Positions 34,191 to 48,058 are shown, counted from the first letter of the stretch. The stretch is 64,000 bases of DNA from an uncultured Planctomycetia bacterium (GCA_963791075.1 CAWBRF010000037.1:55353-119352), one strand, 5' to 3'. Numbers and translations are program-made. Notes: generated by a model from the letters alone, not told the origin.

Positions 34191-34242
34191 TGCCCGGGGG
34201 GAGACTCGAACTCCCACCCCTTGCGGGACAAGATCCTAAGTC
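34191..34242 (-). repeat. displaced 3' 52 nt of tRNA-Leu(UAG); att direct repeat
   Basis: Identical to 47977-48028. It covers the tRNA from the anticodon loop to the discriminator base. Confidence 0.9.
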
Positions 34243-34370
34243 ATTGGGATAGCCCAACCCGTCTGATTTAGTCGCGTCGAAACCTCTTGATTCATTTAGA
34301 CTTGCTGTTATACTTGCTTTCGTACTACGCTATTCGTTTTTAGTCCAATCTATTCATTTTACCAAGGCGC

Positions 34371-34391
34371 GTAGCACGAAGGCGTAGCACG
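34371..34391 (+). promoter_or_regulatory. tandem pair of the 8-mer GTAGCACG (arm-type recombinase site or operator)
   Basis: GTAGCACG at 34371-34378 and 34384-34391, with a further single copy at 34465-34472. Confidence 0.5.
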
Positions 34392-34535
34392 AAACGCAAC
34401 CCCCTCAACAGAGTTGGTAATCAGATGAATTCTTTGTTTCATCCGAGAAACCGACGAATCGGCCGTAGCACGCGGCGGAAGGCCAAAATGGCCAAAATGA
34501 TCGTCGCGTCTGACTGGCATGTCTTGCGGGGGTTT

Positions 34536-34557
34536 CGTGCTACGGTTCGCGTGCTAC
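34536..34557 (-). promoter_or_regulatory. tandem pair of GTAGCACG in inverted orientation, just upstream of the integrase start
   Basis: CGTGCTAC at 34536-34543 and 34550-34557. The integrase ATG is at 34573. Confidence 0.5.
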
Positions 34558-34596
34558 GCGACGGAGGGTCCTATGGTCACATCGTTCCCATTTTCT

Positions 34597-36330
34597 GTAG
34601 TTGTTCACGCGGTCGCGGGGAGCGACCGCGGGGCCGCAGAAAAGAGGGAGAGATAGCGGGGAACGAGTGCCGTCAGGGGCCTGATGGCAGCAGCGAGGGC
34701 GGCAGGGTGCCGGAGAGATAAGCTTGGACCGAGTCCAACAGGAACTGAAAGACCGCGCGACCCTGTTCGGCGCAGGTGGCGATCACGGTCCAGATCCGCT
34801 CGCACCAGCGACAACCTTTTTCGCTCCGCGTTCCCTGGGTGATTCGCCGGTCGATCACCACGAAGCGAATCGCCTGTTCCGCAAGGTTGTTCGTTGGGTC
34901 AACTCCCGGGGTGGTGATGAAGCGGAAGTACGACTCCCCGTTCTCGCGGAACCGTTTCGCCATGTTCCGCGCCTGTTTCGTCTCCGGCACGCCGGTCGTG
35001 GCCGCCTTCATCACTTGCTCCCGTGCCGTTTCCAACGCCTTTTGAAAATCCGCCGCGGTCATCTGCTCGCGCCGATGGATGACGGCAAACAGGTCGCGCA
35101 GGGCGTCCCGCAGCCGTTGGCCGTAAGCTTGATTTTCCGCTCCCGGCAGCGTCAGCAGAAACTTCACGTCGCGGATCAGGTGGGCCATGCAGAACTGGAG
35201 CAGCACGCCGAACACGCGCATATACTTGCGGTAGGCGCTGAAGTAATCGCAGCCCAGCACCCCATTGAACTCTTCGCCGAGCACCTCCACCAGCACTTTC
35301 GATCCCCGCGACTTGTCGATGCGGAAAAGCGTGTAAAGCTGGGCGCGGAAACACCAAGTCCAGAACTTCTCACGGTACTCCTTGTGCCCCGTCTCGTCAA
35401 CGTTCAGCACGGGTTCGCCCGGCAGCCGCTCGAACAACTCGGCATACGCCTTGGCCAACGAATCGCTCACCTTGCCGATCAATTTCGCGAGGTAGCCGCG
35501 GGAAATGTCCACGTGGGCCACGTCGCGGAGGAACTTCCAGATCGTGGAGAACGAGGCGTGGCAGACGCCTTTCATGAAGGCCACCAGGGCCGTCAGCCGC
35601 GGGCCGAACAGCCCCGCCTTGACCACCGCCTCCGGCAACGGCGCGTAGTGGAACTTCTGGCAGTGCGGGCACCAGTAGGCCAAGCCTTGATGTTCCGTGA
35701 CGATGGTCGGCGTGGCGATGATTTCCACCTGTTGCAGGACGTCGGGCGGACGATTGGCAAGCCGAAGCGAACCGCCGCACTCGGGGCAGCAATCCAGCGT
35801 GTACGGCTCGAAACGGTTGACGGCCTCGGGCGGAAACGGCGTTCGCAGAATGTTGATCATGTCCTGGCTGCGCACCCGTCTGCGCTTCTCGCCGTCCTTG
35901 CGCGGCGGCTTGGGCGGCTTGACCATATCGCTCGACGGCGGTTTGGAGGAGGTGGAGGAGTTCTTCAGCGCCGCGGCCAATTGCTGCTTCAGGCGTTCAT
36001 TCTCTTCGCGAAGGTGCGCGTTCTCTTCTTCCAGCGTCGCGATGCGTCCCATCGCCCCAGCGAACTCCTTCTCCAGCCGCGCCATACGCTCGGCTAGCAA
36101 ATCGCGTTCCGAATCGTGGCTCGCTTCCCGCAGCTTCATGGGGCGGAAAGATACGCTTCCGGCCTCATGGGAACAAGATCAACCGGCTGCTCGCCTAACA
36201 AGAATTCTGGCGGATTCTTGCCGGGGGGGGGCTTGACAAGCCAAATTCCGTCGATCAAAATCACATTCGTTGTCCTGCCGCTGAGGGGTTCGGACAGGAC
36301 GATAGTCGTAGGAACCCCGTGAACGGTTAC
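34597..36330 (-). mobile_element. IS66-family insertion sequence (single-ORF type), 1734 bp
   Basis: Imperfect terminal inverted repeats GTAGTTGTTCACGCGGT and GTAACCGTTCACGGGGT (13 of 17 match). 8-bp direct target duplication CATTTTCT at 34589-34596 and 36331-36338. Confidence 0.85.
34673..36139 (-). CDS. IS66-family transposase
   Basis: 488-aa intact ORF. N-terminal leucine-zipper region, zinc finger (CPECGG...CPHC), and a DDE region (VLNVDETGH ... GCDYFSAY ... NNLAEQAIR). Confidence 0.85.
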   Translation of the reverse strand: MKLREASHDSERDLLAERMARLEKEFAGAMGRIATLEEENAHLREENERLKQQLAAALKNSSTSSKPPSSDMVKPPKPPRKDGEKRRRVRSQDMINILRTPFPPEAVNRFEPYTLDCCPECGGSLRLANRPPDVLQQVEIIATPTIVTEHQGLAYWCPHCQKFHYAPLPEAVVKAGLFGPRLTALVAFMKGVCHASFSTIWKFLRDVAHVDISRGYLAKLIGKVSDSLAKAYAELFERLPGEPVLNVDETGHKEYREKFWTWCFRAQLYTLFRIDKSRGSKVLVEVLGEEFNGVLGCDYFSAYRKYMRVFGVLLQFCMAHLIRDVKFLLTLPGAENQAYGQRLRDALRDLFAVIHRREQMTAADFQKALETAREQVMKAATTGVPETKQARNMAKRFRENGESYFRFITTPGVDPTNNLAEQAIRFVVIDRRITQGTRSEKGCRWCERIWTVIATCAEQGRAVFQFLLDSVQAYLSGTLPPSLLPSGP

Positions 36331-46411: not shown

Positions 46412-46626
46412 TGAGCAAAGAGAACGAATTGCGAGCCCTGGAGCGCCTTGCCGCCGACGCCTACCGCGCCGGCGTCGGGTGGTCGGCATTCTGGCCGACG
46501 GTTGCCGAGCGGGTGGACCAGGCCGCGCCGGACGCGAGCGGCCGCCGTCGTCTGGTCAATCGCCTGTTGGCCCTGGTTGCGTGCGGCGACTGTGAAGGGA
46601 TGGAGCCGGCCGGCGACACGGGCTAG
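46411..46626 (+). CDS. hypothetical small protein
   Basis: ATG 46411 overlaps the terL stop (TGATG). 71 aa, MSKENELRALERLAADAYRAGVGWSAFW.... Confidence 0.35.
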   Translation: MSKENELRALERLAADAYRAGVGWSAFWPTVAERVDQAAPDASGRRRLVNRLLALVACGDCEGMEPAGDTG

Positions 46627-47358
46627 GGTAACTGCTTTTCCCAAACGTCCAAGATCGACGCTGAAGCAACCGGATGTTGAATCATCATTTCACACTCGAT
46701 GGCGCAGCGTTCGTTATCAAGGAATTTGCACTCGGCATACTTGATAAACTCTTTTGCCATGTTGGAAATTTGGTATCCCGCCCCCTCCGAAATGCGAAGT
46801 TGCGCCTCGACCACAGCAGGCACACCCGCCGATTCCAGAATAGGAAAAAGCTCATCGCGTAGGTCATAGAGTGCGCGTCGCGTTACCTCACCACCGAAGA
46901 AGCGGAAGAAATCGGCATAACCAGGATCGTCCGTCGCCTCTTTGGAGAGAGCAAACCACAGTTGCCCTTCTCGATAGTTGTACTCAGCGTAAGCGTCAAA
47001 CGCCCTTGCGGTGTCCCACAGCAATCGCTCTTGGACGCCTTGCCGCCGAAGCATTGCTAAGACACGATCCCTTTGCCGATTGCGAGTCAGAAGCTCAAGG
47101 CCGTTTCGCCTAACTTCGTCCTGGTCGGCAAGTCGAGTGCAATGGAAGGCGCAGGATTTCCAGGGCGCGCAGTATTGCTTCAAGCTCTGCTTCCGTCCCG
47201 CGATTGACCGGAGTTCCACGATAACCGATGCACCAATGGCGGCCATCCCGATGGGCCGCAAGATCGTCTTCCCTCTCCCGCCGCGTTTCTATTACGCGGG
47301 GGACCAGCAGATTGAGAATCGCAGCGGGCCACGTCTTTTCGTCGGATAGGTCAATCAT
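46623..47358 (-). CDS. cargo gene B: unknown protein with a DarT/Tpt1-like [FY]HxT-x7-[IV]xxxGL motif; frame-broken
   Basis: The N-terminal part is ORF 47110..47358 and the remainder is ORF 46623..47261 (change ~47154). AFHCTRLADQDEVRRNGL has the same H..T..V...GL spacing as LYHGTAPANVSCIRSSGL of the KptA gene in this window. The C-terminus is ..IECEMMIQHPVASASILDV. GC looks lower than in the neighbouring genes. Confidence 0.5.
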
Positions 47359-47803
47359 GGCCTAACCGCGCCTCAGCAATCGCCGCGGCGCAATTTGCCA
47401 GTTGCTCTGGATAAAATTGTTTCGCATCGTTCAGCGCGGCAGTAAAGGGTAAAGGCGCCGCTCCTCTTGGAAGATAAATCGCCTTCCATTCCCGCTCCCC
47501 AGTGCCGAGCATCTCCGCTTTGACCGAGAGGGCAACCACCGCCCCCGCCTTTGCCGTGGCGGAGGCCGTGATTCGGAATGACACTATGGGACCGCCGCGT
47601 ATTGCCCGGCCGCCCGGCGCCAAGCTACGGCAGCAACAGAAAAAGGTGTCGCCATCCTGTTGCGGTTGCTCGACCTGGAAGCAAAGCGCGGGGAACAATT
47701 CGGCCAGTCTCGGCTGGCCGGCAAACTCTTGCAAGGCTGGCTGGGCAATCTCCTCGACCGTCTGCTTTGCCGCTTTGCTCGCGTCGTCTAGATCATTGGG
47801 CAT
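47351..47803 (-). CDS. cargo gene A: unknown 150-aa protein
   Basis: Start ATG 47803 is preceded by AGGGAGGG. Its stop overlaps the gene B start by 8 nt (ATGATTGA). No family recognised. Confidence 0.5.
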   Translation of the reverse strand: MPNDLDDASKAAKQTVEEIAQPALQEFAGQPRLAELFPALCFQVEQPQQDGDTFFCCCRSLAPGGRAIRGGPIVSFRITASATAKAGAVVALSVKAEMLGTGEREWKAIYLPRGAAPLPFTAALNDAKQFYPEQLANCAAAIAEARLGHD

Positions 47804-47895
47804 CGGCTGACCCTCCCTTGTGAAAGTGGCCCACGGTGAGCCGGTTTGTCGTCTGAGGTCGTTTCGTGGCAAGCCCGCCGGGAAATCTCGCGACC

Positions 47896-47914
47896 GTAGC
47901 ACGGGCGTAGCACG
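47896..47914 (+). promoter_or_regulatory. tandem pair of GTAGCACG near the tRNA-proximal end of the element
   Basis: GTAGCACG at 47896-47903 and 47907-47914. The pair lies 63-81 nt from the att repeat and upstream of cargo gene A on its strand. Confidence 0.5.
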
Positions 47915-47976
47915 GCGCTATTACCCCCCTTCTAAGCCATACGTCTCAATCGTCGTAAGTCCTTATGCCGCAACAG

Positions 47977-48058
47977 TGCCCGGGGGGAGACTCGAACTCC
48001 CACCCCTTGCGGGACAAGATCCTAAGTCTTGCGTGTCTGCCAATTCCACCACCCGGGC
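47977..48058 (-). tRNA. tRNA-Leu, anticodon UAG
   Basis: Reverse complement is GCCCGGG-UG-GUGG-AAUUGGCAG-ACAC-G-CAAGA-CUUAGGA-UCUUG-UCCCGCAAGGGGU-GGGAG-UUCGAGU-CUCCC-CCCGGGC-A. It has a 7-bp acceptor stem, a 5-bp anticodon stem, a long variable arm and a T-loop UUCGAGU. CCA is not encoded. Confidence 0.9.

Follow-up and report, generated by a model that had tools for sequence, protein, structure and literature searches.

Integration site and gene content

The sequence considered here is a 64,000-nt stretch of DNA (the window) from an uncultured Planctomycetia bacterium (GCA_963791075.1, CAWBRF010000037.1:55353-119352), which carries between positions 34191 and 48058 an integrative element that is probably a phage satellite. 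The element spans 13.9 kb, or 12.1 kb without an IS66-family insertion sequence (IS) that has entered it. By ARAGORN and Rfam, the single tRNA gene of the window is a tRNA-Leu(UAG) on the minus strand (47976/47977-48058), and a repeat search of the window recovered an exact 52-nt direct repeat whose two copies bound the element (Table 1). The repeat corresponds to positions 31-82 of the 83-nt tRNA, starting at the anticodon stem-loop and stopping one base short of the 3' end, and an exact 52-mer recurring within 64 kb cannot be due to chance. With a tyrosine integrase adjacent to it, the repeat is what the initial annotation had taken it for, namely the 3' part of an intact tRNA-Leu(UAG) and the signature of tyrosine-integrase insertion. 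The element was placed in this gene by an integrase with an arm-binding domain, and 52 nt were duplicated in the process. Immediately left of the left repeat lies the 10-nt trailer CATAAGGGAA; since the same trailer follows tRNA-Leu(UAG) in two unrelated metagenome contigs, the left copy fits the host gene's original 3' end, now displaced. That the repeat could instead be left over from a tandem or duplicated tRNA, or have arisen in assembly, and have nothing to do with integration is scarcely credible: the assembly does contain local indel errors, but the repeat is exact, is precisely the tRNA part that integrases typically duplicate and flanks an integrase-bearing module on both sides. Moreover, the same geometry is found at at least 18 independent loci in other assemblies, and the GC content of the element interval is 61.9%, compared with 65.8% in the left flank. 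As a further observation, the 14 nt just outside the two repeats (34174-34187, GTTGCCGCATAAGG; 47961-47974, CCTTATGCCGCAAC) are near-perfect reverse complements of each other, with one mismatch.

All genes of the element lie on the plus strand except the last two, the transposase of the IS within the integrase gene (minus strand) aside. The element possesses its own replicon, formed by a primase/RepA-like helicase and by iterons immediately downstream, in which AACGGGATA occurs five times at 41038-41178 against 0.17 expected. The primase-helicase, the iteron array and an AlpA/Xis-like helix-turn-helix (HTH) protein had been proposed before, and all three hold up under profile searches and motif counts. 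A 139-aa open reading frame (ORF) lying over the iterons is probably not a gene, and the 90-aa Cys-rich ORF that precedes the primase may be its zinc-binding N-terminal part. A second motif, GTAGCACG, is present ten times in the 64-kb window, where 0.95 copies are expected, and all ten fall within the element; nine are grouped at the positions given in Table 1 and the tenth lies within the primase gene. The presence of GTAGCACG in both attachment (att) arms and ahead of the packaging genes suggests that one DNA-binding protein, either the arm-binding domain of the integrase or AlpA, may couple recombination to late expression through these candidate sites. No enrichment of GTAGCACG was detected in the relatives described below, so the motif is specific to this element. 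A promoter and terminator scan returned no excess over shuffled expectation.

The right half of the element encodes its own packaging enzyme, a large terminase (TerL) with ATPase and nuclease domains, and a protein termed G1 in the position of a small terminase (TerS). The earlier assignment of TerL is borne out: in addition to the PHROGs match, the family profile aligns with the ATPase domain of HK97 TerL (6z6d, 2e-9) and with the nuclease domain of G20c TerL (5m1f, 7e-3), and 296 full-length homologues were recovered at E<=1e-5. G1 has a conserved helical N-terminal region of about 125 aa, which starts with a GNxNAxRHG-like motif and ends with DPW, followed by a variable disordered tail. An exhaustive search of 1.84 billion proteins placed its relatives in 86 representative clusters, mostly of 140-240 aa. 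When 79 of these relatives were compared with PHROGs, the annotated families matched were three small-terminase families only, and the matches were weak (E 0.01-0.02). The AlphaFold2 (AF2) model of G1 (pLDDT 69) consists of two short helices followed by two long ones, an arrangement that is compatible with a DNA-binding head and an oligomerisation hairpin and not diagnostic of them. The constant position beside TerL and the PHROGs matches thus point, weakly, to G1 as a TerS.

Several further genes accompany this module. The predicted ERCC4 nuclease was confirmed, with its catalytic motif intact, and copies 63-69% identical occur in seven related loci at varying positions. The largest protein without annotation, a 263-aa all-helical coiled-coil protein, gave no fold match, and its predicted fold is not that of a capsid or portal protein; its N-terminus is weakly related (hhalign probability 66%, E 6e-5) to coiled-coil ORFs that, in relatives, neighbour TerL or a protease-like gene. 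The zinc finger noted initially corresponds to a zinc ribbon, with a profile score below the cutoff. Directly upstream of the zinc-ribbon gene and TerL, imperfect direct repeats of 46-58 nt extend over 43935-44601 and include an exact 16-mer, GGCCCGTCCGCGCCAG, at 43950 and 44344; they could be a site for packaging or regulation, or encode a small repetitive protein. Defence functions were considered for the two reverse-strand ORFs and the other proteins without annotation and were not retained: PADLOC returned nothing for any of these, and searches of PDB sequences with the two reverse-strand ORFs and the 166-aa protein gave nothing significant (best E 0.13).

No ORF of the element has a Pfam or PHROGs match to capsid, portal, protease, tail or lysis proteins, and the capsid, portal and protease genes of relatives, used as BLAST queries and as hidden Markov models (HMMs), found no match in the window. 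The reported lack of virion genes is therefore upheld. A degraded prophage with a hidden capsid or portal gene was rejected for this copy, as all of these searches were blank and the 263-aa protein is an all-alpha coiled coil. Conjugation or partition machinery was likewise not found in this copy by Pfam or PHROGs.

Table 1. Features of the element and its attachment sites, with positions in the window.
Feature	Position	Strand	Basis or remark
Left att repeat, displaced tRNA-Leu 3' part (positions 31-82)	34191..34242	-	Exact 52-nt repeat; host-type 3' trailer to its left
Five GTAGCACG motifs (three direct, two inverted), from att repeat to integrase start	34371..34557	.	Candidate arm-type or regulatory protein-binding sites
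First 8 codons of integrase gene (MVTSFPFS), severed by the IS	34573..34596	+	Removal of IS and one duplication copy restores an ORF matching Arm-DNA-bind_3
IS66-family insertion sequence, 1,734 bp	34597..36330	-	DDE_Tnp_IS66 3e-40; zf-IS66 3e-7
IS66-family transposase, 488 aa	34673-36139	-	DDE_Tnp_IS66 3e-40
Remainder of tyrosine integrase, arm-binding and catalytic domains	36331..37533	+	Phage_integrase 1e-23; Arm-DNA-bind_3 in another frame; phrog_1 5e-58
166-aa protein	37535..38035	+	Good coding score; no Pfam, PHROG, PADLOC or PDB match (best of it and the two cargo ORFs against PDB: E 0.13)
AlpA/Xis-type HTH_17 protein	38135..38352	+	HTH_17 9e-9 after 1-nt repair, profile positions 5-50 of 51
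90-aa Cys-rich ORF, overlaps primase start	38411..38683	+	ORF only; no family match
Primase / RepA-like hexameric helicase, ~800 aa, replication initiator	38557..41034	+	AAA_25 1e-22; phrog_2597 DNA primase 3e-35; RSF1010 RepA 1g8y 8e-5
Iteron array, putative origin	41036..41179	+	GCAACGGGATA[AG], five direct and one inverted; begins 2 nt past primase stop
GTAGCACG pair, 40 nt upstream of G1/packaging cluster	41482..41500	-	Motif count
G1, 227 aa, candidate small terminase	41542..42225	+	Homologue directly upstream of TerL in 18/19 delimited elements
ERCC4/XPF-type nuclease	42229..42819	+	ERCC4 1.4e-5; phrog_3490 5e-9; GDx(n)ERKx3D motif intact
263-aa all-helical coiled-coil protein (u263)	42823..43614	+	AF2 all-alpha, helix 49-135, pLDDT 63
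Weakly coding stretch, ORFs of 130 and 164 aa	43721..44604	+	Low coding scores; imperfect 46-58-nt direct repeats
Small zinc-ribbon protein, just upstream of and overlapping TerL	44646..45005	+	DZR_2 3e-5, below cutoff; 80% conserved in L001
TerL, 473 aa, ATPase and nuclease domains	44990..46411	+	phrog_9 1.4e-20
71-aa ORF coupled to TerL stop codon	46411..46626	+	83% conserved in L001; no family match
Two cargo ORFs (212 aa; 150-183 aa)	46623..47902	-	Modest coding scores; no Pfam, PHROG, PADLOC or PDB match
GTAGCACG pair, right att arm next to tRNA	47896..47914	+	Motif count
Intact tRNA-Leu(UAG)	47976..48058	-	ARAGORN, Rfam; its 3' 52 nt (47977-48028) are the right att repeat, element-supplied

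A family of related elements in Planctomycetota

A scan of one genome per species identified 49 TerL loci, mostly in metagenome-assembled genomes of Planctomycetota, including Pirellulales, Planctomycetaceae, Gemmataceae, Thermoguttaceae and Ca. Kuenenia. The gene plan that recurs at these loci (denoted here by L-numbers) comprises an integrase, an HTH_17 protein, a primase (AAA_25 or D5_N/DUF5906 type), a G1 homologue, sometimes a small ORF, and TerL. At least 18 relatives of 9.8-17.8 kb are flanked by a tRNA gene (Thr, Arg, Lys, Phe, SeC, Cys or Val) and a partial copy of it of 20-48 nt, and at three more loci the repeats are not tRNA-anchored. The search for other copies or variants of the element was thus positive, revealing a family that carries TerL and G1 at different tRNAs. 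Among 19 delimited elements, which were gene-called and clustered, TerL is present in all and G1 in 18, always just upstream of TerL. Their primases are of at least two types, and a first clustering divided the integrases into three clades. The closest relative of the window copy is L001, whose TerL is 81% identical.

Members of the family differ mainly in what follows TerL. In L025, L029, L030, L039 and L040, TerL is followed by an HK97-type capsid gene (Phage_capsid 8e-19), a conserved protein of 135-180 aa and a portal gene (Phage_portal 7e-43); L026 and L059 have the capsid gene and this small protein, with no portal gene called. Other members encode a protein of about 300 aa that is weakly similar to head-maturation proteases (phrog_15531 3e-9). 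Capsid, portal and protease-like genes are all missing from others, including L007, L008, L011, L023, L001 and the window copy. The capsid-less architecture is also seen in L051, and L007, L008, L011, L023 and L051 are all repeat-bounded relatives in the 10-kb range. When the 114 remaining ORFs of at least 95 aa from 18 relatives were scanned against PHROGs, HNH nucleases, primases, a reverse transcriptase, a DnaC-like loader, a single-stranded DNA-binding protein and ParB were recovered, and no tail or lysis family was present among the 25 most-matched of the 82 families. Altogether, the family is defined by TerL and G1 and spans capsid-forming and capsid-less forms, and the element in the window is a member of this previously undescribed Planctomycetota family of probable phage parasites.

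One member may have been captured outside a chromosome. L059 is an IMG/VR contig (IMGVR_UViG_3300035698_026333) of 13,504 bp, in which a 127-bp terminal overlap closes a circular unit of 13,377 bp that encodes an integrase, AlpA, a primase-helicase, TerL and a major capsid protein (Phage_capsid 6e-26). This contig may represent a family member in episomal or packaged state, and its circularity at 13.4 kb is no more than suggestive of a satellite; a partial tRNA that would mark attP was not found in it by Rfam or by BLAST with the tRNAs of the other loci. Furthermore, the same TerL clade is represented on longer IMG/VR contigs (19-56 kb), where many large ORFs in a row come after it, and these contigs may be true phages and possible helpers.

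The head genes of relatives also bear on whether the family is linked to phages at all. The element could in principle be an integrative replicon that is plasmid-like or self-sufficient in some other way, whose TerL-like ATPase-nuclease and G1 serve to process or resolve DNA and do not hijack a capsid, or else a minimal virus of unknown type, and this would agree with the lack of a known helper, with the lack of detectable homology between G1 and solved or curated TerS proteins, and with the many family ORFs that have no annotation. Such a reading is nevertheless improbable, as the TerL profile matches bona fide packaging terminases over both domains, the HK97 capsid gene and in several cases the portal gene of relatives stand directly after this TerL and tie the clade to head packaging, and the window copy has no conjugation or partition machinery.

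Several loci show additional features. In tRNA integration, the duplicated segment is usually the 3' part of the gene. At L007, L008, L011, L020, L023, L025, L033 and L051, where an Int_a-type integrase lies by the tRNA, the duplicated segment is the 5' part, and the tRNA, encoded on the minus strand, meets the element with its 5' end. Two family members, L014 and L048, lie about 400 kb apart on the same 3.55-Mb contig (CAVPPL010000005.1). In L055 the tRNA-Cys repeat occurs three times (2016-2062, 4811-4858 and 20726-20773), which suggests tandem elements at one site. In L053 (11850-21476), TerL is followed by an HTH protein and then by a DEAD/Helicase_C/MZB protein of 1,847 aa, a helicase of UvrD type and one of SNF2/ResIII type; this cluster looks like defence-type cargo, in which case the family may move defence genes.

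Interrupted integrase and integrity of the window copy

The integrase gene noted initially is present, with strong matches of its body to integrase profiles, and the IS66 element that disrupts it had been missed. The IS lies between the left repeat and the integrase body and splits the gene after codon 8. Its assignment to IS66 rests on a DDE_Tnp_IS66 transposase, on imperfect terminal inverted repeats starting with GTA (GTAGTTGTTCACGCGG / GTAACCGTTCACGGGG) and on an 8-bp target duplication, CATTTTCT, at 34589-34596 and 36331-36338; a single ORF is present, with no TnpA/TnpB. The insertion, with its target duplication, is real. A +1 frameshift within AAGAAACCC (about 36582-36585) further interrupts the integrase, and alpA contains a 1-nt frameshift (a deletion) at about 38236 in the assembly. 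When the gene was rebuilt in silico, removal of the IS joined the ATG at 34573 to the downstream frame (MVTSFPFS|EQRIRALK...), and removal of one A at about 36582 yielded a protein of 405 aa with both domains at full length (Arm-DNA-bind_3 positions 2-82 of 83, 4.5e-14; Phage_integrase 1.5e-23). In this copy, which carries the IS66 insertion within the integrase gene, the element is probably not self-mobile, and excision would probably depend on integrase supplied in trans.

The single-base frameshifts call for a different reading. Two host genes in the same window are also broken: in hslU (31811-33148), a conserved motif block changes frame twice over about 130 nt, and smc (25138-28802) is split over many frames, which points to local indel errors in the assembly. 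The 1-nt frameshifts of int and alpA are therefore probably assembly errors and not decay, the single-base frameshifts of the window are not to be read as pseudogenes, and those of int and alpA were set aside as evidence of degeneration.

These observations bear on a serious, if on balance unlikely, rival, according to which the element is a dead remnant: a decaying derivative of a capsid-forming satellite or small prophage, stripped of its head genes, struck by an IS and by now no more than a fixed genomic island. The IS66 within the integrase gene, with its target duplication intact, and the frameshifts in int and alpA would fit such a history. So would the region after TerL, where relatives have capsid and portal genes or a protease-like gene and this copy has only the 71-aa ORF and the two reverse-strand cargo genes, and the interval 42040-44520 (2.5 kb, with the ERCC4 and coiled-coil genes), which is an insertion relative to L001. 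Against this, the 52-nt repeats are still identical, and TerL, G1, the primase-helicase and the ERCC4 nuclease are full length with intact motifs. The frameshifts lose their weight in view of those in hslU and smc, and the recurrence of the capsid-less form in L007, L008, L011, L023, L051 and L001 argues that it is a stable state and not a peculiarity of this copy.

The closest relative also carries insertion sequences. In L001 (12479-16358), IS66-family genes (TnpB and transposase) and an ISAZ013 transposase follow directly after the packaging genes, and the integrase is in pieces. IS66 elements seem to target or accumulate in this subfamily.

Comparison with known satellites and proposed life cycle

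Reportedly, phage-inducible chromosomal islands of the capsid-forming kind (cfPICI) were described by Alqurainy and colleagues in 2023. Marker sets for phage-inducible chromosomal islands (PICI) and cfPICI were taken from the SatelliteFinder models (PMC10085698), in which TerL distinguishes cfPICI from PICI (de Sousa et al., 2023, PMC10085698). The PICI markers present in the element are an integrase (Phage_integrase and Arm-DNA-bind_3, interrupted by IS66), an AlpA-type regulator (HTH_17) and a primase-replicase with downstream iterons; a capsid-morphogenesis match is lacking, and TerL is present although the PICI model excludes cfPICI-specific components. For cfPICI, the large terminase is present and the element's own major capsid and portal genes are absent from this copy. 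A head-tail adaptor or connector, an HNH nuclease and a prohead protease were likewise not found in this copy by Pfam or PHROGs, while an HNH nuclease and a protease-like protein occur in some relatives. By these published sets the element is neither a PICI nor a cfPICI, and its left half is that of both. The PICI-type layout suggested at the outset therefore stands as far as the order of integrase, alpA, primase-replicase, origin and packaging genes is concerned, a compact architecture that recurs in at least 18 repeat-bounded elements, and fails as a classification owing to TerL.

Among the closest known systems are the cfPICI. Like them, the element falls in the 10-15 kb size class, integrates site-specifically, has a left half of int - alpA - primase/replicase, encodes its own terminase with TerL on the right and has no tail or lysis genes; moreover, the relatives L025, L026, L029, L030, L039, L040 and L059 have an HK97 capsid gene, several with a portal gene. 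In contrast, genes for portal, capsid, protease, HNH nuclease and head-tail adaptor or connector are missing from the window copy and from several relatives, so that about 5 of 11 cfPICI core components remain, the nuclease is of ERCC4 and not HNH type, and the TerS candidate is unrelated in sequence. The described cfPICI are from Proteobacteria and Firmicutes, whereas this family is from Planctomycetota and its TerL clade has no close relative in isolated phages. Classical PICI, including Staphylococcus aureus pathogenicity islands (SaPI), share the order int - alpA/regulator - pri-rep - iteron origin by the replicase - packaging genes, the lack of structural genes and the accessory cargo at the far end. 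However, PICI steer the helper TerL by means of their own TerS and encode no TerL, and no homologue of the capsid-morphogenesis genes cpm/ppi was found in the element. P4-like satellites resemble it in the tRNA-Leu target, the arm-binding integrase, the AlpA-like protein and the large primase-helicase, but P4 has no terminase, and the helicase here is of RepA/AAA_25 type. No ORF had a PHROGs or Pfam match annotated as sid, psu, delta or epsilon, a negative for which the coverage of each model in the libraries was not checked.

Small environmental satellites offer a further comparison. Virion-encapsidated integrative mobile elements (VEIMEs) and minimalist chromosomal islands of phage-inducible type (PICMIs) likewise encode an integrase, AlpA, a primase-helicase and sometimes TerS, and lack genes for a major capsid protein; helper capsids serve for their packaging (Eppley et al., 2022, PMC9618062; Barcia-Cruz et al., 2024, PMC10803314). 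In marine VEIMEs, the large terminase is named as a presumed contribution of the helper (PMC9618062), whereas in the present family it is a universal marker. In a satellite survey, most satellites were from Proteobacteria and Firmicutes and only some from other taxa, such as Actinobacteria (PMC10085698), and a full-text literature search returned no paper mentioning both phage satellites and Planctomycetes. Among cultured isolates, phages of planctomycetes are, to our knowledge, almost absent.

The phage-satellite interpretation of the initial annotation is supported by the integrase, alpA, primase-replicase, iterons and packaging genes, by the lack of virion genes and by the family evidence. 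In its most plausible form, the element would be a small, tRNA-integrating, helper-dependent satellite of Planctomycetota that uses its own terminase. On infection by, or induction of, a helper tailed phage, the AlpA-type protein would turn on excision and the rightward operon, with GTAGCACG as a candidate binding site, and the element would replicate from the iterons. G1 and TerL would then recognise the element DNA, cut it and drive it into helper-made procapsids, while the ERCC4 nuclease may debranch DNA and the 263-aa coiled-coil protein may act on capsid assembly. Relatives that bear a capsid gene, whether or not a portal gene accompanies it, would make their own heads in the manner of cfPICI, and tails and lysis would come from the helper.

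A number of points weigh against this model. No helper phage has been identified, and the check for a helper prophage found none within the 64-kb window. Lacking a cognate portal, TerL has to engage a foreign one, which is undescribed in the satellite literature searched. The TerS role of G1 is weakly supported: the small-terminase-like protein proposed initially retains its TerS position and the three weak PHROGs matches, whereas a Foldseek search of its AF2 model against PDB and BFVD gave nothing significant, and Pfam (with 23 members) and two profile searches against PDB sequences were negative. Isolated phages contain no close TerL, the best being 22.7% identical. Since the same TerL clade occurs in longer phage-like contigs, this copy could be a deletion derivative, and its integrase is split by the IS, with int and alpA frameshifted in the assembly. 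An empty attB was sought in one metagenome scan, which returned only tRNA-Leu genes of another organism with the same 10-nt trailer and non-homologous flanks, and a search of IMG/VR for the junction of an excised circle (attP) found none. Finally, all support is at the sequence level.

A bolder proposition, offered tentatively as possible rather than probable, extends the model to the phylum. Planctomycetota would harbour satellites in which a complete private terminase, composed of a novel TerS-like protein and TerL, is the invariant module for hijacking; many members without capsid, portal or connector genes, the window copy among them, would bring their own motor to a foreign helper portal, and capsid-forming and capsid-less forms would coexist in one lineage. 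Such a strategy differs from TerS-only redirection (PICI), from capsid-size remodelling (P4, SaPI and PLE) and from the building of own heads (cfPICI). If TerL does work on a helper portal, this would constitute a new mode of molecular piracy. TerL and G1, together with the tRNA repeats, provide a sequence-defined handle on satellites, and through them on helpers, in a phylum whose virology is nearly unknown. Furthermore, as capsid-forming and capsid-less members stand side by side, the gain and loss of head genes can be compared within one lineage.

Two further features of the window lie outside the element. Immediately to the right of the tRNA (48549-50491), two neighbouring short ORFs match AAA_lid_14 and are fragments of a sigma-54-type activator, probably another frameshifted host gene. 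Further to the right (57770-59455 on the minus strand, and 60337-63685), a large serine recombinase (Resolvase, Recombinase, Zn_ribbon_recom) is found by an extracytoplasmic-function (ECF)-type sigma factor, a deformylase-like ORF and several small ORFs without annotation; this region may be the margin of another mobile element extending beyond the window.

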